Below, one piece after another: positions 45,299 through 52,936 of a DNA stretch of 64,000 bases (the stretch's first letter is position 1; each line of letters begins with the position of its first letter). The notes beneath the pieces were generated by a model. That model made no database searches, was not told the DNA's origin, and saw only the letters and a list, made by a program, of their open reading frames with translations. This DNA is from a gamma proteobacterium symbiont of Ctena orbiculata (GTDB lineage Bacteria > Pseudomonadota > Gammaproteobacteria > Chromatiales > Chromatiaceae). The stretch lies in contig NATV01000102.1 in assembly GCA_003094535.1 (NCBI GenBank), positions 6,507 to 70,506 of the forward strand, given 5' to 3'. The position numbers and the translations under genes were made by a program.

Positions 45299-46093
45299 CT
45301 ACTCGTTGGCAGCCGCCATGTCTCCACATTTCAGCAAGGCCAGCATCTCCTTGTTTTCCAGTTTATTGGCAAAATCACAGGCGTTGACCTCCTGCTTGCC
45401 CATTTTAAGGTAGTCCGCCGCCTTCATAGTCTGCTTGGGATCCGCGCCGTTTTTCAGCAGCAACTTAACCATCTTATTGCTACCCGTGTTGATGGCGTAC
45501 ATCAGTGGAGTAAGGTCCTCTTCACTTACCCTGTAATTGACATCAACGCCATTTTTCAAAAGCAGCCTGACCGCTTCGATTTTTTCCTCGCTGACGGCCT
45601 CTTGCAGCAGCGTCCTGCTGAACATGGTTGTTACGTTCAGATCCAGCCCCAGTTGAATCGCCCTTTTTAACTGCTCGTCCCGATCATTGACACCCGGTTC
45701 ATAGAGCACAAGCTGAAGTAACTCTCCGTTCTCCACCGCACCTTTATAGGCCTCACAGCCCGACGCAGAGCCAAAATCACATGCAAGTTTGGTGTATTTA
45801 TAGGCTTCAACAATATCTTTTGATTCAATGCCGAATCTAACCTCCCCTTCTAAATAAGCCGACGCCATGACAAGGCAGAGCTCGCCACTTTTCTCTTCAA
45901 TACAGTACTGTTTTAACGTTTCACCCGCCTCTTCGTACCGCAGCTGAGAAACAAGGAAAGTGACCTCCCTCTGCCAACCGATCGGAGCCCCTGCCGCCAT
46001 GGCCAGAGTGGGCAGGACGAACAGCGCCATGACTGCAAAAAACACTTCTTTGATGGCTTTCCTGTTCAAGCTGTAACCCTGTAGCATTATCAT
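45299..46093 (-). CDS. Exported Sel1-like + ankyrin repeat protein
   Basis: AYKYTKLACDFGSASGC; RTLLQEAV...LLLKNGVDVN; TPLMYA...LLLKNGADP. Confidence 0.85.
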   Translation of the reverse strand: MIMLQGYSLNRKAIKEVFFAVMALFVLPTLAMAAGAPIGWQREVTFLVSQLRYEEAGETLKQYCIEEKSGELCLVMASAYLEGEVRFGIESKDIVEAYKYTKLACDFGSASGCEAYKGAVENGELLQLVLYEPGVNDRDEQLKRAIQLGLDLNVTTMFSRTLLQEAVSEEKIEAVRLLLKNGVDVNYRVSEEDLTPLMYAINTGSNKMVKLLLKNGADPKQTMKAADYLKMGKQEVNACDFANKLENKEMLALLKCGDMAAANE

Positions 46094-46147: not shown

Positions 46148-47056
46148 TTAACCGATCGGACCACCCATATCATCGGTACTGTCATGCATCTCCCCGCCCC
46201 AATCTATCCACTCCACAAGGGAACCGTCATAGAGCCGGGCTTCCGGGTTTTGCAGAATTTGATGCAGGACAAACCAGCCCAATGCCGCCCAGACGCCGGT
46301 ATCGCTGAAAGTGGCAAGCGCCCCTCTGGTTTGAATATCATAACGTTCAAATTCCAGTTGGATGATTTCCGCGGACAGAAACCCTCCTGTTTCACCATCC
46401 AGTAACCGTTCAGGCGGAATCCCGACACCGTCATAAATCGTTCCGCCTTCGGCTACCTGCGGGTCTCGCCTGTAGCCTTCAAAATAGGACGTGGGCCGCA
46501 GATCGATCACCGGCCTGTTATTACCCAGTAAATCTTCCACGCGACTGCTGTCGGCCAACAGATCAGGCTGGAGACTGATGCTGCACACCTTTGGGTCCAC
46601 GGATGACGCGCCTTCGACCAGATCGTGAGCGGGCAGCGACTCAATACCGCCGTCCAAAAGTGCGACCCGCTGAACACCGGCCATCATCAGGCTCCACACA
46701 ACACGCGCCGCTTCAGCGACCTGCCTGGGATGCCTGACGGAACCGACCACAATCACGGATTCATCACCCTCCAATCCCAGGCTGCCCAGTAACTCCGCCA
46801 GTTTATTCCCGTCAGGCAGGTAACCGGGCAGGCCGTAGCGATCAACCTGCCAAGCGCGCTCTTTAAAGCCGGCCCAGCGTGCTTGCGGCCAGTGGCCAGC
46901 CATGAACTCGGCGCGGGACCTGACATCCAAAACAACAACTTTTTCGCTGTTCTGGGAGAGCCAGGCGCCATCCACCAGTACCGGCAAGGGCGCTGCAAAA
47001 AGATACAACGGCCAGAGACATCCCAACAGTGCCAGGATAGGAAACTGTACAGCCAC
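46148..47056 (-). CDS. Tandem-domain rhodanese/sulfurtransferase homolog, active-site Cys replaced by Ser
   Basis: VLDVR...GHWP, LLDGG, IDLR, FSDTGVWA, LYDGSLVEW; GTG start at 47056 chosen to avoid a long overlap (ORF track start 47107). Confidence 0.85.
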   Translation of the reverse strand: MAVQFPILALLGCLWPLYLFAAPLPVLVDGAWLSQNSEKVVVLDVRSRAEFMAGHWPQARWAGFKERAWQVDRYGLPGYLPDGNKLAELLGSLGLEGDESVIVVGSVRHPRQVAEAARVVWSLMMAGVQRVALLDGGIESLPAHDLVEGASSVDPKVCSISLQPDLLADSSRVEDLLGNNRPVIDLRPTSYFEGYRRDPQVAEGGTIYDGVGIPPERLLDGETGGFLSAEIIQLEFERYDIQTRGALATFSDTGVWAALGWFVLHQILQNPEARLYDGSLVEWIDWGGEMHDSTDDMGGPIG

Positions 47057-47991
47057 TATGACCGGGTCACGCAGTGATTCAGTTCGGAAGCCAGTTTGCC
47101 AAACCACTGAAAGTAGCCTCCCGTCGTTTTCGGCATCTCCAGGCCGGCGGGATCCAATACGACACTGTTCAAGCCGGCCTGATCCAATACAGATTTAAGC
47201 TGCGGATCTATGGGTTCGGCCGCCACCACGCATTTGACGCCCCGGGTCTTGGCCTTATCGACGATATCCTGGGCGCTTCCGCCGGCTGGAACCGTTCTCA
47301 GTCGATAGCGCTGTTCAAGGTAGTGAAATTCATCCTGCAAGACCACAAACGGCTGGCCGCCGACATGGTGAAACAGTTTGTTGACGCGGATGTCCAGCTC
47401 CCAGAGGGCCTGGATGATCTGATCCGAATTGCCCTGGTAGGCCCAGTGGTTACGTTGGTCCAACCCCTGAAAAACCATCGTTATCGCCTCCAGGGCCGCC
47501 ATGGCGTTCAGCGGGTCCAGCCAATATAGCGTATCGATCGCCCCTTCGGGGCGAATGGTTTGCACCATGCCATATCCCTTACCCAATGACTCCATGTGCG
47601 GATCCTCATCTTCCTTCGCTGCTTTCCAGTCTGCCGGAGTCCGCTTGGCCAGCTGGTGTACACCGGCCGCGTCAATCAAGGAGACTGCCGCCTGGCCGGA
47701 TTCCGTCAGCTGCCTCCCAAGCCCGGGCTCTAAGGTTGCGCCACCCCAGAAGAGGACCGTCAGATCGTCTGGTATCTGCCAGCGCCCCCGCTCATCCTTC
47801 TCCACCAACAGGACTTCCACTGGGCTGCCCCAAGCCAGCGCAGAGGCCAGGGTGAACATAGGGGGCTGCGTAACGCCGACGCGGAACATGGCTTGCGGCT
47901 TCTCACTGGTGGGCAGATCACCGCCAACTACCGTTGCAATAAGTCCCAACCAGAGCGCGATAACGCTTACAACCAATCTAGCCATAACCAC
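47056..47991 (-). CDS. ZnuA-fold substrate-binding-like protein lacking canonical His ligands
   Basis: YWLDPLNA, FVVLQDEFHYLEQRY, VLDP cluster A-I framework; no permease or ATPase adjacent. Confidence 0.72.
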   Translation of the reverse strand: MVMARLVVSVIALWLGLIATVVGGDLPTSEKPQAMFRVGVTQPPMFTLASALAWGSPVEVLLVEKDERGRWQIPDDLTVLFWGGATLEPGLGRQLTESGQAAVSLIDAAGVHQLAKRTPADWKAAKEDEDPHMESLGKGYGMVQTIRPEGAIDTLYWLDPLNAMAALEAITMVFQGLDQRNHWAYQGNSDQIIQALWELDIRVNKLFHHVGGQPFVVLQDEFHYLEQRYRLRTVPAGGSAQDIVDKAKTRGVKCVVAAEPIDPQLKSVLDQAGLNSVVLDPAGLEMPKTTGGYFQWFGKLASELNHCVTRS

Positions 47992-48008: not shown

Positions 48009-48590
48009 CTATTCAGAATTTGTCGCCTGATCGTTTTTCGCCATGTGCCCTTTCACTTTGACCAGCAGCGCCTTATACGACCCCAAGTCGGCCAGAGTGA
48101 GGTGGCGAACCCCGCTGTGAGAGTTAAACGTGACCACCATTTTATGCCCTTTTTCCATCTCATTGAGGATTTTCGCGGCACTTTCAGGGGAGATCATCAG
48201 GTTGTTCCCTTTGGGTGCCGTGATCTTGTGGCGGCTGTGCTTATCGATGCCGATAGTGACGGTAGTTCCCGCCTTGAATCCCTGGTAGGTGGCGACCACA
48301 AAACCAACGGAATCGGGTGTCCACGCTGGCCCTACCTGGACAAAATTCTTTGCTTTCCATTCGCCGAACTGTTCGATGTGAAACATGCGGCAGTAGACCT
48401 TGTTCTCCTCCATTTCGTCGCAAGTCGCCTTCCAGGTTCCGGCCCGCTCTTCGAACAGGTGATCCCGCTTCATCGGCATGGGCACCCGCTGTTCACTCAT
48501 CGCGCCTTCATCCGCAGCCTTTGCCAAAACGGGAGCGACGCAAAATCCAATCGCCAAGACCAGAACAGTCGTAACAAGAGGATCTTTCAT
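48009..48590 (-). CDS. Invasion-associated locus B (IalB)-like exported protein
   Basis: GTWKATCD...YCRMF; MEKGHKMVVTF; ADLGSYKA. Confidence 0.65.
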   Translation of the reverse strand: MKDPLVTTVLVLAIGFCVAPVLAKAADEGAMSEQRVPMPMKRDHLFEERAGTWKATCDEMEENKVYCRMFHIEQFGEWKAKNFVQVGPAWTPDSVGFVVATYQGFKAGTTVTIGIDKHSRHKITAPKGNNLMISPESAAKILNEMEKGHKMVVTFNSHSGVRHLTLADLGSYKALLVKVKGHMAKNDQATNSE

Positions 48591-49732
48591 TAATCCGCCT
48601 CCGCATCATTGCGCGCGCCGCGCAGCACCCAGTTACTGACCAGCTGCAACTGCTCCTGACTCAGCTTGGTGTAACGCCGCATTTCCTTCAGGTTGTTGCG
48701 CCAATCGAACATGATCCACTTATCACGTGGATAGGTTGTGTGACACAAATTGCAGTCCAAATCATGGAGATCGGTCACATACTCCCAGAAGCGCTCTTCA
48801 CTGGATCCAATGGCAGAGCGTGGCACCCATCCGCTAAGCTTGATGCGGTTCCAGGTCAACTCATACTCCGGTTCCAGCTTGCTCTCTATTTTCTCCACTT
48901 GATCCATGCCATCGAAATTCATCTTGGCCAACGCGACGGCACGATTGAAGTCGATAAAGATCTGACTGCCCTCTTCCCTGTCCCATCCTTCACTTGTCAC
49001 TTGAACCCAATCGCCATCCTGTTTGACAACCGTCAACGGCGTACCGCCATAGAGCGTTGCCAGCGGATCTTCGCCGCCCGGGGTAGCCGTCATTTCCACT
49101 TCAGGCAGGATCACAACCGCATTGTCAGCGAGTTGGGCATTATGGGCTTGCGTATGATATTCGGCTTCCATCTCCGCATAGAGCTTCTCCATATTGGGCA
49201 ATTTATGGGCAATTCCTTTGTGGCAGTTAATACAGGTCTGCTCCCCGCTCATAAGCTTCTTGTGCATCTTTTGCGCCAATGAAGCCTGCTTGTCTGTAAG
49301 CATTGTTTCGTTGGTATGGCAGTTACGACACTCGCGGGAGTCACTCTTCTCCATGGTCCTCCATACATTGTCGGCAAGCTGCAGCCGGTGTGCTTCAAAC
49401 TTCTCCGGTGTATCGATGGTGCCCAGGGCCCAATGGTACAACTCTTTTGTCGCCATGATTTTACGCACCAATTTCGCACCCCAGGGTTTCGGCACATGAC
49501 AGTCTGAACAGATTGCCGGGACACCGGAGGAATTGTGCGCATGCGCCGACTCTTCATACTCCCCCTTCACCACATTCATTTCGTGGCAGGAAGTACAGAA
49601 TTCATAGCTATTGGTATATTCCATGAAGGTGTTAAAGCCGCCCCAACCAATAACACCGGCGATGATACCGACACCAAGCAACAGGCTTCGTGGGCCTGTT
49701 CCCGACAACCATTTGAGCGCTTTTTTAACCAT
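48590..49732 (-). CDS. TorC/TorY-like pentaheme c-type cytochrome (NapC/NirT domain + C-terminal monoheme domain)
   Basis: TM anchor, CTSCH, CSDCH, CRNCH, CINCH, HKGIAH, then CNLCH; start MVKKAL with AGGA RBS. Confidence 0.9.
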   Translation of the reverse strand: MVKKALKWLSGTGPRSLLLGVGIIAGVIGWGGFNTFMEYTNSYEFCTSCHEMNVVKGEYEESAHAHNSSGVPAICSDCHVPKPWGAKLVRKIMATKELYHWALGTIDTPEKFEAHRLQLADNVWRTMEKSDSRECRNCHTNETMLTDKQASLAQKMHKKLMSGEQTCINCHKGIAHKLPNMEKLYAEMEAEYHTQAHNAQLADNAVVILPEVEMTATPGGEDPLATLYGGTPLTVVKQDGDWVQVTSEGWDREEGSQIFIDFNRAVALAKMNFDGMDQVEKIESKLEPEYELTWNRIKLSGWVPRSAIGSSEERFWEYVTDLHDLDCNLCHTTYPRDKWIMFDWRNNLKEMRRYTKLSQEQLQLVSNWVLRGARNDAEAD

Positions 49733-49816
49733 CACATTCCTATCGATTACAGTTCTATCAGTTTCATCATTGAAGGAGAGAGTCGCCAATCAAGATCTAT
49801 CCAACAATTAACTATA

Positions 49817-49833: not shown

Positions 49834-49900
49834 GAAAACAGACAACCGCCTTGACCCATACCGCAATCGAAGTCAGTCTTAAAATTCAATAAAAGGAGTG

Positions 49901-49934
49901 AAAAAATGGAGCCAGCCCAAAGGACTGGCTCCAT
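49901..49934 (-). terminator. Intrinsic terminator after the dodecaheme gene
   Basis: 10-bp stem ATGGAGCCAG/CTGGCTCCAT followed by a T-run on the minus strand. Confidence 0.75.
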
Positions 49935-49974
49935 CCATTCAGGTGATAACCACCTCTTTGCCTGCTACCGCAGC

Positions 49975-52326
49975 TTACTTCTTCTGAGCGGCAATGGCCT
50001 TCAGCGCTTTCTTCATGAACTGCTGGTGTTCGAAGCTATCCATAACGCCAGGCTTGGATACCTTCTTCCAGAATTCAGGATTGAAACGCTCTTCGTGACA
50101 TCCGAGGCAGACACCGGTCTTCTCGATGGCGTCACGCTTCTCATCAGGCAGAGGACCTGTCAGCGGCCAGTGAGAACCTACGGAACTCAACTGTTCGCCA
50201 TCCTCGGTAACGATCGCGGACCAGTCGTAGGTCAGGCCGGGGATGCCGGGGATCTGAACCTGGGTCTTCTGAGGAATGATCTTGCCACTCGCGGAGTCCT
50301 TCAGATCCAGGACGAAGTCCTTGTCGGCACCCAACAGGAAGCGACCGCCCTCAACACCGTAGCCCAATGCCTTGGGATTGTCGTGACAGGACTCACAGCT
50401 CCGGGCGCTACGGCCAGCGGTGTGAGGCTGTACGGCGGCGGTATCGATACCTGGACCTTCAGGGGTCTCCCAGATCTTGTTGTTGACCAGGGTCTTGCCG
50501 TCTTTGTCGATAACCGTGGTGGTTACCTGACAACCAGGCATCATCGGGCTGACACGGCCTTCACCGTTGATACCGAGTACCGGCGTCTCCCAACGCAGAT
50601 AGGAGCGGGTCTCCATGACCTTGCCAGGGCTTTTCATACCATTGGTGTTGGGCGGTGCATCCGGGGTCAGACCGGTCTTGGGATCACGGTTGCTGGCGTT
50701 GACGAGCCAGTCGGTACCCTTATTGTCTTTGGAGTAGTCGACGGTGACGTGACAACCGTAACACTGCGGAACCCAGTCGGCGTGACAAGCGTAGCACTCC
50801 ATGTTGTTCTGATGTTGAGGAATCAGGAACATGGAAACCTTCGCCAGCGTAGACTTGAAGGTGCCTTCGTCACCGATCTGCTTCAGCAGCGGAACCCTGA
50901 AGTCCAGGCCGTTGGCGGAGTGAACGATAACGTCCTTGCCCTTCTTGACCACATTACCCAAGGGGTTGCCCCGGGCAGTCAGTAGGAAACCATCTTCAGG
51001 TTCGTACTGGGTGGCGTCTTTCATGTACTCGGGCCACTCCTTGCCGAGTCCGCGCGCCTTGGTGTCGGCGGTCGGCAGACCGTCTTTCATCTCACCGAAC
51101 TCTTCGCCACGACCCAGGGGCAGATCCCAAGGCAGTTTATTGAAGGTACCGTGACAGTCTTCACATTCGACCTCAACCTGAGCCAGGGTGGTGCCGGGGA
51201 TGTTGCCGTCACCATGCAGATCGATGGTGGTATGGCAGTCCTGACAGAGCATGCCGCCTTTCGGGTTGCCGGCAATCGAGTTCATTTCATGGTGAAGGTC
51301 TTCCTTGATGAACAGGTAACGCTTGGTGTGCATCTTGGGCTGCTTCTTGCCCTTTTCATTGAAAGGAGAACCGTAAGGCGCTTCCATGATGCCCTGATAG
51401 CTGACACCTACACGCTTACCGCGGTTGTGGCAAGAGACACAGGTTTCAACCGGGATACCGGAGTATTCAACCTCGCCAACCTTGACCTTGGTCTTACGGG
51501 TGCCCTGCATGCGGTGAGTCAGTATGTGACCCGCCTCGTCCTTGTTGATGGTGGGGTCGCCGCCTTCGTAGAAGCCGTCATTGGAGTAAGGCACGTGACA
51601 GGCGGAACAACCGGACCCGCGGTAGTCACCACGCTTGTCGCGACCGGTAACACCAACGTGACAGCGCTGACAGTCATGACGGGAGTAGGTAAGACCCGCG
51701 TGGTTGGGATTGTCGGTCAGCTTGGCCAAATCCACCTGGGGCAGCTGTTTCAGCCGCTTGGGCATCTGGTCCGGATGTTTCTTGACGAAGTCCTTCATGT
51801 ACTTCTTGTACGCTTTGGTACCGACCAGAGGCACAGGACCGTCCTCGTCCATGACGTCGTAGTTGCCCCAGACAACCTTCATGTCTTTCTGATAGCCCCA
51901 GGACCACATGTTGCCCTGCAGCTTACCGGCCTCGGTATTCATCAGGGATTTGTTCAGACGGTCGTAGTACCCGGAGTGGCACTGGCCACAGGCCTGGTCG
52001 TTAACCGGCATTGCACCGGGATCCGGCAGGAAGTTCTTGGGACCGCCCTTTTTGGCCAGGGCGGCGGGTGAGCCCATATGGGCTTTCATTTTGTCCTTCT
52101 CTTCGGCTGGGTTGCCACCGTGACAGACCACGCAGCCCGCGGGGTCCCCCAGTTCGGCGCCCATCTTTTCAATGTCCTCCTGCATGACACCGTCACTAAA
52201 GCGTTCAACGCCTTCGTGACAAGCCAGACAGGCTTTGCCTTCGGCTTCAGCGATAGGGACGAAAGTAGTGCCTCCGCTACCCCATCCGACTAACGCCACA
52301 ATTGCAAGTAATGCTAGGCGTTTCAT
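49975..52326 (-). CDS. Periplasmic dodecaheme c-type cytochrome
   Basis: Signal peptide; 12 CxxCH (CLACH, CVVCH, CGQCH, CQRCH, CSACH, CVSCH, CQDCH, CEDCH, CYACH, CYGCH, CESCH, CLGCH); one extra Cys in PGCQ. Confidence 0.93.
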   Translation of the reverse strand: MKRLALLAIVALVGWGSGGTTFVPIAEAEGKACLACHEGVERFSDGVMQEDIEKMGAELGDPAGCVVCHGGNPAEEKDKMKAHMGSPAALAKKGGPKNFLPDPGAMPVNDQACGQCHSGYYDRLNKSLMNTEAGKLQGNMWSWGYQKDMKVVWGNYDVMDEDGPVPLVGTKAYKKYMKDFVKKHPDQMPKRLKQLPQVDLAKLTDNPNHAGLTYSRHDCQRCHVGVTGRDKRGDYRGSGCSACHVPYSNDGFYEGGDPTINKDEAGHILTHRMQGTRKTKVKVGEVEYSGIPVETCVSCHNRGKRVGVSYQGIMEAPYGSPFNEKGKKQPKMHTKRYLFIKEDLHHEMNSIAGNPKGGMLCQDCHTTIDLHGDGNIPGTTLAQVEVECEDCHGTFNKLPWDLPLGRGEEFGEMKDGLPTADTKARGLGKEWPEYMKDATQYEPEDGFLLTARGNPLGNVVKKGKDVIVHSANGLDFRVPLLKQIGDEGTFKSTLAKVSMFLIPQHQNNMECYACHADWVPQCYGCHVTVDYSKDNKGTDWLVNASNRDPKTGLTPDAPPNTNGMKSPGKVMETRSYLRWETPVLGINGEGRVSPMMPGCQVTTTVIDKDGKTLVNNKIWETPEGPGIDTAAVQPHTAGRSARSCESCHDNPKALGYGVEGGRFLLGADKDFVLDLKDSASGKIIPQKTQVQIPGIPGLTYDWSAIVTEDGEQLSSVGSHWPLTGPLPDEKRDAIEKTGVCLGCHEERFNPEFWKKVSKPGVMDSFEHQQFMKKALKAIAAQKK

Positions 52327-52459: not shown

Positions 52460-52476
52460 GGCAAAATCCATACCAC
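52460..52476 (-). promoter_or_regulatory. Sigma54 (-24/-12) promoter of the dodecaheme gene
   Basis: GTGGTATGGATTTTGCC, GG-N10-GC. Confidence 0.68.
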
Positions 52477-52709: not shown

Positions 52710-52936
52710 GCCAATCAAGCAATAGAAGAGGCACCCTGGATTCCGTTCAAGTGCCATTTGATAATCATCGATACCGCTATCAATGTCCGTATCGCTCTCA
52801 ACCAGTACTGCATTGGCAGCTTAAACCTGAACATGCCTCCATAGGGTAAAAATGCTATGCCACGTGCGGTTAAGATATAATTTTTGTACGCTGTGGAAAG
52901 AGTCAATCCCTTAGATTACAAACACGGGAGGAGCTG

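Follow-up and report, generated by a model that had tools for sequence, protein, structure and literature searches.

The analysed window, a stretch of 64,000 nucleotides from the genome of a gammaproteobacterial symbiont of Ctena orbiculata (contig NATV01000102.1), contains a gene for a 12-heme c-type cytochrome of the long ExtM-like family (P0001; 49975..52326), recognised by its open reading frame, its translation, its CxxCH count, and a match to the ExtM model NF040943. The single Cys residue of this protein outside the heme-binding motifs, C599, is evolutionarily coupled to one specific heme, heme 10. The gene, like all other window features given below, lies on the minus strand. It extends from an ATG (52326-52324), preceded on its 5' side by a GGGAG ribosome-binding site, to a TAA (49977-49975), and encodes 783 amino acids. 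Residues 1-29 (52240..52326) read as a predicted Sec signal peptide that ends in A-E-A and lacks a lipobox, indicating that P0001 is probably a Sec-exported, soluble periplasmic cytochrome. The protein has 25 Cys residues, 24 of them within 12 canonical CxxCH motifs (starting at residues 33, 65, 113, 219, 240, 296, 361, 388, 511, 522, 644, and 740), as had been recognised in an earlier note made from the sequence, and a motif scan of the translation retrieved no CxxxCH, CxxxxCH, CxxCK, or other atypical heme motif. The twenty-fifth, C599 (codon TGT; 50532-50530), is found within M-P-G-C-Q, at the end of the conserved segment G-R-V-S-P-M-M-P-G-C599-Q (50527..50559). Two further elements are of importance, namely the heme-10 motif C522-Y-G-C525-H526 (50749..50763) and the segment R302-G-K-R305 (51412..51423), which follows straight after the heme-6 His (H-N-R-G-K-R). 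In a heme-free AlphaFold2 model of P0001 (predicted local distance difference test, pLDDT, 74.9; predicted template modelling score, pTM, 0.75), C599 ends a strand (residues 592-600) in a beta-rich region that also contains the heme-10 motif.

C599 was invariant in all 121 close homologues, down to about 60% identity, and the 12 heme motifs were invariant or nearly so; a lack of conservation of the Cys, envisaged in the earlier note, was not borne out. Indeed, the residue lies in an invariant stretch, G-x-N-G-E-G-R-V-[ST]-P-x-M-P-G-C-Q, and additional Cys residues among these homologues were confined to the signal peptide, so that the mature protein has exactly one non-motif Cys. A disulfide involving C599 was therefore rejected for the P0001 family. 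A thirteenth or atypical heme site was rejected as well, since C599 is followed by an invariant Gln instead of a His or Lys, and forms part of neither a CxnCH nor a CxxCK motif. Beyond the close family, a Cys occupied this position in 61 of the 89 cluster representatives (50% identity) whose sequence covers the motif. In addition, 114 of 120 true ExtM-clade proteins kept the PGCQ Cys, as counted in MAFFT alignments with a same-row rule that keeps the modules of ExtM-ExtN fusions apart.

The presence of C599 is associated with that of heme 10. Among 82 diverse representatives covering both sites, 52 possessed the Cys and heme 10, 18 neither, five the Cys only, and seven heme 10 only (odds ratio 27; Fisher p = 1.6e-8). 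When both sites had to lie in one aligned stretch, counted by the same-row rule, the numbers were 49/5/6/16 (p = 8e-8). Several of the five Cys-only representatives look like error-ridden fragments. Among the 12 motifs, a positive association with C599 was seen for heme 10 alone; motif 3 displayed a negative one (p = 0.0009) and the remaining ten none. Conversely, a scan of about 770 alignment columns for association with heme 10 ranked C599 first, followed by R302 (p = 9.8e-7), G598, R574, and E572; R305 tracked heme 10 too (p = 0.007). The suggestion that the lone Cys belongs to one particular heme thus gained support in the form of a specific evolutionary coupling. The two arginines next to heme 6 may have a role in anion or propionate binding.

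The replacements at position 599 point in the same direction. Heme 10 was lost in 15 of 15 sequences with F, H, I, L, Y, R, or T at this position and kept in four of five with Gly, as would be predicted for a side chain that points towards the heme. Similarly, the homologous module of ExtN possesses heme 9, heme 10 and the Cys both being absent. No His behaves as the distal ligand of heme 10, because none of the 12 conserved non-motif His residues (83, 184, 271, 333, 345, 346, 371, 469, 505, 635, 719, and 767) tracked its presence (all p >= 0.08); a conserved His was rejected as the distal ligand on this ground. One of them, H371 (51214-51216; in H-G-D-G-N after heme 7), gives way to Met in 119 of 121 sequences of the ExtM clade and in roughly one third of the diverse representatives. 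This alternation was independent of heme 10, which is what a ligand of a different heme would show, and a His/Met switch, typical of an axial ligand, may tune the potential of one heme between clades. Taken together, the coupling of C599 to heme 10 fits what an axial ligand or a heme-pocket residue should show. The alignments are most economically explained by C599 acting as sixth ligand of heme 10, or lying in its distal pocket, which is also the most likely reading; the superfamily would then possess one His/Cys heme.

The same co-variation would fit a thiol that is not an iron ligand, with C599 acting as a catalytic or substrate-carrying group beside a five-coordinate heme 10. Comparable arrangements are found in octaheme tetrathionate reductase and in the Cu-binding Cys pair of MccA. 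Heme 10 persists in variants with Gly, Glu, Pro, or Val at position 599, so that this heme is possible without a Cys ligand, and the conserved basic residues R302, R305, and R574 track it. However, no conserved distal-pocket set of His, Tyr, or Lys, typical of open-site multiheme enzymes, tracks heme 10, and the models of the NrfA, Otr, MccA, and HAO families matched P0001 only at E >= 0.005, far under their cut-offs. A non-ligand thiol is considered unlikely.

As to its family, P0001 is homologous to ExtM by sequence and belongs to the ExtM superfamily. Its best NCBIfam match was NF040943 (ExtM; E 4.5e-67, 226.7 bits, residues 203-657), and BLASTP against the ExtM control P0243 gave 26% identity from the first to the last heme motif, with all 12 CxxCH collinear. 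The ExtN and ExtO models matched residues 499/573-653, and the region from hemes 9 and 10 through a beta module to heme 11, with G-[RK]-V-x-P-x-x-P-G-C-Q, is common to P0001 and the ExtM superfamily. The equivalents of R302 and R305 are conserved in the ExtM clade as well. The resemblance to ExtM that had been noted for the middle part of the protein hence stands as homology, but P0001 is not an ExtM equivalog: its 226.7 bits lie below the curated cut-off of 800 bits, which P0243 passes with 826 bits, and the gene lies outside an ext operon. Indeed, annotation of the neighbouring genes revealed neither the porin ExtI nor ExtKL/MccSep, ExtN, or a Rieske/cytochrome b pair beside it, and no MccSep/ExtKL homologue was found in the host genome, which is 99.99% complete. 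A relationship to octaheme families, for which a model search had likewise been proposed, did not rise above noise (NrfA 15.6 bits versus a cut-off of 595; Otr 14.9 versus 375), placing P0001 outside both families. Searches of the PDB with the single sequence and with a 99-sequence profile gave no meaningful match, and a Foldseek comparison of the AlphaFold2 model with the PDB gave nothing at E <= 0.001.

Several features of the ExtM clade concern the same site. A second Cys, C535 of P0243, is conserved there (98%; residues 462 and 535 of P0243 were examined) and is replaced by Ser in exactly the six ExtM sequences in which the PGCQ Cys is replaced by Ser, heme 10 being kept. In ExtM, C535 and the PGCQ Cys may form a pair at the site, recalling the Cys plus selenocysteine of MccSep, or a disulfide. 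Furthermore, relatives of about 985 amino acids with 19 CxxCH motifs (P0273-P0299 and similar) resemble ExtM-ExtN fusions, of which the first module carries the Cys and heme 10; in the second, the heme-10 motif is replaced by E-Y-G-T-F and the Cys by Phe. This second module resembles stand-alone ExtN (L088:10796-12043; L numbers denote surveyed loci). At the latter locus, from Desulfurispirillum indicum S5, the gene order is porin, small protein, ExtM, ExtN, Rieske, cytochrome b, ExtQ, and ExtS; this ext-like cluster has no ExtKL/MccSep gene and faces two rhodanese genes and an operon for a Psr-like molybdoenzyme.

Downstream of the cytochrome gene, the window contains a same-strand run of five genes. 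The first, directly 3' of the P0001 gene, encodes a TorC-like membrane-anchored pentaheme cytochrome (48590..49789; likely start M20 at 49732; PF03264, E 7e-68), with an N-terminal hydrophobic helix, an N-terminal NapC/NirT tetraheme domain, a C-terminal monoheme domain, and five CxxCH; on the TorC model TIGR02162 it reached 290 bits, under the cut-off of 478. It is followed by genes for an exported protein of 193 amino acids that is weakly IalB-like (48009..48590; PF06776, E 0.027; the homologue in L014 reaches the cut-off) and for a homologue of periplasmic binding proteins of the ZnuA fold (47056..47991; PF01297, E 6.7e-22), which was found only in Thiodiazotropha/Sedimenticolaceae loci. 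The latter protein has no permease or ATPase genes nearby, and its usual His-containing motifs read D-T-L-Y-W-L-D-P and Q-D-E-F-H-Y. The fourth gene encodes a two-domain rhodanese-like protein (46148..47107; PF00581; weak ExtH match, 33 bits) with Ser at the position of the catalytic Cys (F-S-D-T-G). This position was Ser, or Gly in L011, within F-S-D-x-G in all seven loci that carry the gene (L006, L007, L008, L010, L011, L014, and L070), from Gamma- and Alphaproteobacteria; by its sequence, the protein is a rhodanese fold conserved in non-catalytic form and may be a partner that binds anions. The last gene of the run encodes an exported ankyrin-repeat protein (45299..46093; PF12796, E 1.6e-14) that is kept in five loci.

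The cytochrome and torC-like genes are separated by a terminator-like hairpin followed by a U-run (49899..49941), which starts 34 nucleotides past the P0001 stop codon. With a free energy of -29.6 kcal/mol it was more stable than its shuffled versions (z -6.35; 0 of 200 shuffles equally stable); the automated terminator scan did not list it. The gene had been credited with a promoter and a terminator of its own, of which the terminator is well supported and the promoter weakly so. Indeed, sigma-70-like matches upstream of P0001 were at chance level (three found versus 1.7 expected in shuffled sequence), and the only notable promoter element was a sigma-54-like -24/-12 element, TGGTATGGATTTTGC (TGGTAT-N5-TTGC; 52461..52475), located 134 nucleotides upstream of the ATG and retrieved by a pattern scan as a candidate by consensus match. 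A distant FNR-like box, TCGATGATTATCAA, occurs in the window at 52755-52771, 445 nucleotides upstream of the P0001 ATG.

The P0001 family gave 2180 matches in 90% clusters, with relatives in at least 522 species genomes. The closest homologue (96%) stems from Candidatus Thiodiazotropha taylori, and the gene occurs in other Thiodiazotropha and Sedimenticolaceae genomes too, which points to a sulfur oxidiser of the lucinid-symbiont type as the source of the window. The long ExtM-like family is found in marine Alpha- and Gammaproteobacteria, with 59-68% identity between the two classes. Within the taxonomic family of the window's host genome, 17 of the 80 genomes sampled contained the gene, with an identity of about 58%, and one genome of the same genus lacked it. 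A survey of 83 loci revealed two genomic contexts. In type A (65 loci), found in marine Rhodobacterales and Rhodospirillales, the cytochrome gene is followed by one for a four-Cys protein of about 120 amino acids with a Rap1a fold, and usually has CcmF-CcmH-CcmI genes and a divergent gene for a Crp/FNR regulator as neighbours. In type B (12 loci), which includes the window, Magnetococcus, Magnetospira, Magnetovibrio, and Terasakiella, it is followed by the gene for the TorC-like pentaheme cytochrome (12 loci) and mostly by that for the IalB-like protein (10 loci); the loci of the Thiodiazotropha group add the ZnuA-fold, rhodanese-like, and ankyrin genes. The patchy occurrence within the taxonomic family, together with a Magnetococcus homologue of 80% identity, suggests lateral spread of the type B module. 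Type A members share 59-64% identity with P0001, as well as the same 12 motifs and the same C599. Unlike them, the window, representing the rarer type B, has no Rap1a-like gene, adjacent regulator, or lyase, and a sigma-54-like promoter element instead of an FNR-box promoter. Indeed, FNR-like boxes (TTGAT-N4-ATCAA, at most one mismatch) occurred within 330 nucleotides upstream in 29 of 67 type A loci versus one of 67 control stretches, and in one of 12 type B loci.

A second CcmF-CcmH-CcmI set adjoined the 12-heme gene in 35 of the 83 loci (e.g. L005:3061-6933, L025, and L033), and was truly extra in the three genomes checked, of Shimia, Roseibium, and one member of the Thalassobaculaceae, with two CcmF each. 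No atypical heme motif accounts for this additional set. Dedicated lyases for atypical heme sites are known, namely NrfEFG and SirEFG (PMC6976685). Such a private set would be explained if C599 were covalently bound, either by a cross-link to heme 10, such as a third thioether, or as the anchor of a thirteenth, non-canonical heme. However, C599 is followed by the invariant Gln, and the host genome of the window keeps C599 with a single CcmF, as other type B loci keep it without an adjacent lyase. The heme lyase set is thus not tied to C599, and a covalent bond of this kind seems highly improbable.

Based on these data, it is tentatively proposed, as a possibility that falls somewhat short of being probable, that P0001 is a 12-heme cytochrome of the ExtM superfamily with a His526/Cys599-ligated heme 10 as reactive centre for sulfur or selenium bonds, linked to the quinone pool via the TorC-like partner. 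Eleven hemes would form an ordinary chain with His/His (or His/Met) ligation, and heme 10 (C522-x-x-C525-H526) would carry the thiolate of C599 as sixth ligand, or at least in its distal pocket, in a site lined by R302, R305, and R574. Electrons would pass between the quinone pool and P0001 via the co-encoded membrane-anchored pentaheme cytochrome. The His/Cys heme would be the place of reaction, where C599, by analogy with TsdA, SoxA, and MccSep, may form or cleave S-S (or Se-S) bonds in an inorganic sulfur substrate, with polysulfide, thiosulfate, and tetrathionate as examples. His/Cys hemes are rare, TsdA and SoxA being established examples at sulfur-sulfur bond chemistry, and to our knowledge this is the chemistry wherever the role of such a heme is known (TsdA, SoxAX, and MccSep). 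A quinol-linked periplasmic oxidoreductase for inorganic sulfur or chalcogen compounds is suggested by the TorC-like partner, the quinol-oxidising partners of ExtM, and the rhodanese-like neighbour that recurs in seven loci. The sequence data show the architecture, the homology to ExtM, and the invariance and heme-10 coupling of C599, whereas an Fe-S bond, a catalytic role, the class of substrate, and the direction in which electrons flow are inferred. As to the latter, TorC-type proteins normally feed reductases, relatives in the NapC/NirT family are able to work in the direction of quinone, and the host oxidises sulfur.

Several observations weigh against this proposal. First, on a tree built without the trait columns, the state of the Cys changed about 14 times and that of heme 10 about 15 times, but only four independent pairs were found on supported branches, so that the raw Fisher values overstate independence. 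In 200 random pairings, two to three of these pairs changed in the same way and essentially none in the opposite one (one of the four in a few pairings), with a median p of 0.5; this phylogenetically controlled test is underpowered and not significant, its direction being consistent. Secondly, heme 10 is retained in seven or eight relatives that lack the Cys, and so does not depend on it, and the 12 conserved non-motif His residues of the close family are numerically enough for 12 bis-His hemes. The His count alone does not decide the ligation of heme 10; H184 is replaced in four of the 121 close homologues and variable in more distant relatives. Thirdly, the AlphaFold2 model is only moderate, as its pLDDT indicates, and the predicted ligation of heme 10 derives from sequence comparisons. 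Fourthly, Pfam, NCBIfam, PDB, Foldseek, and BLASTP searches revealed no homology of P0001 to TsdA, SoxA, DsrJ, or MccSep. A correspondence of the C599 region with the heme-ligating Cys of MccSep was examined and rejected, as BLASTP against the MccSep homologue P0390 gave matches at the level of CxxCH only; the PDB set that was searched did contain structures of MccSep. Lastly, the sulfur link is circumstantial: it is weakened by the rhodanese-like neighbour being without catalytic Cys in all seven loci, and most family members, being of type A, have neither a TorC nor a rhodanese neighbour. In addition, genes just downstream of the cytochrome/TorC-like pair encode an H-NOX protein and a hybrid histidine kinase in Magnetococcus (L004:13485-16185) and a cytochrome c' in Magnetospira (L006:11622-12074), which hints at a nitrogen-oxide connection that competes with the sulfur reading.

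Alternatively, P0001 may not be an enzyme but an electron hub, a wire or capacitor of 12 hemes in the periplasm, placed between the TorC-like quinol dehydrogenase (elsewhere bc1/cytochrome c) and other redox partners. In that case a His/Cys heme 10 would be no more than a step that is redox-gated or of very low potential, or the thiol of C599 would serve in docking or regulation. This is consistent with the Pfam matches of P0001, which were generic multiheme electron-transfer domains alone (c7, c3, and MtrC domains II/IV), no catalytic family being matched, and with conserved His residues sufficient for near-complete hexacoordination. Furthermore, ExtM has been grouped with the quinol:cytochrome c oxidoreductase cluster Cbc6 (PMC13591261; bioRxiv 10.1101/2021.04.15.440034). 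Against it stand a very high sequence conservation, unexpected of a simple wire (identity between classes about 60%; mean column identity of the family 67%), one strictly kept Cys, Arg residues that co-vary with heme 10, and a small partner protein and private heme lyase set kept beside the gene in many genomes. A pure electron-transfer role hence appears rather unlikely.

A literature search retrieved nothing on a Cys ligand in ExtM or on the marine long ExtM-like family. The novelty lies in the evidence, at the level of single residues, for a link between the lone Cys and one heme; judged by its sequences, the P0001 family is probably a new family of His/Cys multiheme cytochromes. The analysis predicts which heme of the ExtM superfamily is thiolate-ligated, naming the residue (C599), the heme (C522/C525/H526), and a candidate pocket (R302, R305, and R574). 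This would provide a first functional handle on Geobacter ExtM/Cbc6 and a widespread marine 12-heme family (more than 500 species genomes), as well as on an accessory respiratory module of the chemosynthetic lucinid symbionts (Candidatus Thiodiazotropha). More doubtful is the extension to the whole ExtM superfamily, which would then represent an unrecognised class of multiheme enzymes whose reaction centre, a His/Cys heme 10, sits on a beta-rich module for which neither a Pfam model nor a solved structure exists. Members of the superfamily number in the thousands and stem from marine Alpha- and Gammaproteobacteria, magnetotactic bacteria, sulfur-oxidising symbionts, and Desulfuromonadia. If this were true, the lucinid-symbiont lineage would possess a new pathway by which an inorganic sulfur or chalcogen compound is linked to quinol, with the TorC-like protein as partner, and ExtM would be a second His/Cys enzyme beside MccSep in the sulfur respiration of Geobacter.

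Compared with known systems, P0001 resembles TsdA, SoxA, DsrJ, and MccSep in being a periplasmic c-type cytochrome from a bacterium that metabolises sulfur, with one conserved non-motif Cys for one heme. These proteins have one to five hemes, whereas P0001 has 12, and ligation by Cys is a prediction in the latter, which also has no second nucleophile, be it selenocysteine or a Cys as in MccSep. MccSep (ExtKL; PDB 9wt8) is a polysulfide reductase with a His/Cys heme and is encoded directly upstream of ExtM in Geobacter (bioRxiv 10.1101/2025.11.18.688581). With the TorC-TorA, DorC, and CymA modules, the locus has in common a membrane-anchored quinol dehydrogenase of the NapC/NirT type, the TorC-like counterpart being encoded directly 3' of the P0001 gene. 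Unlike TorC-TorA, the window contains no molybdoenzyme (TorA/DorA) or TorD, and the presumed partner of the TorC-like protein is the 12-heme cytochrome. The closest comparison is with ExtM itself (GSU2935), the 12-heme protein of the extHIJKLMNOPQS cluster of Geobacter sulfurreducens (PMC5877670). ExtM has been assigned to the putative quinol oxidoreductase cluster Cbc6 as well (GSU2930-2935, cbcMNOPQR; bioRxiv 10.1101/2021.04.15.440034), the role of which is still called unknown (PMC13591261). ExtM is about 165 residues shorter than P0001, the excess of which comes through inserts, and has further free Cys residues, one of which is lost together with the PGCQ Cys, whereas the P0001 family has none. 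The partner of ExtM is a Rieske/cytochrome b pair (ExtOP) instead of a TorC-like cytochrome, and its cluster contains a porin, ExtN, and ExtS, none of which lies near P0001. In contrast, both proteins are encoded near a quinol-oxidising module and a rhodanese-like protein (for ExtM, PMC5877670), and P0001 and ExtM (P0243) share the PGCQ Cys, the heme-10 motif Q-C-Y-G-C-H, the H-N-R after heme 6, and the P-H-T that contains H635.

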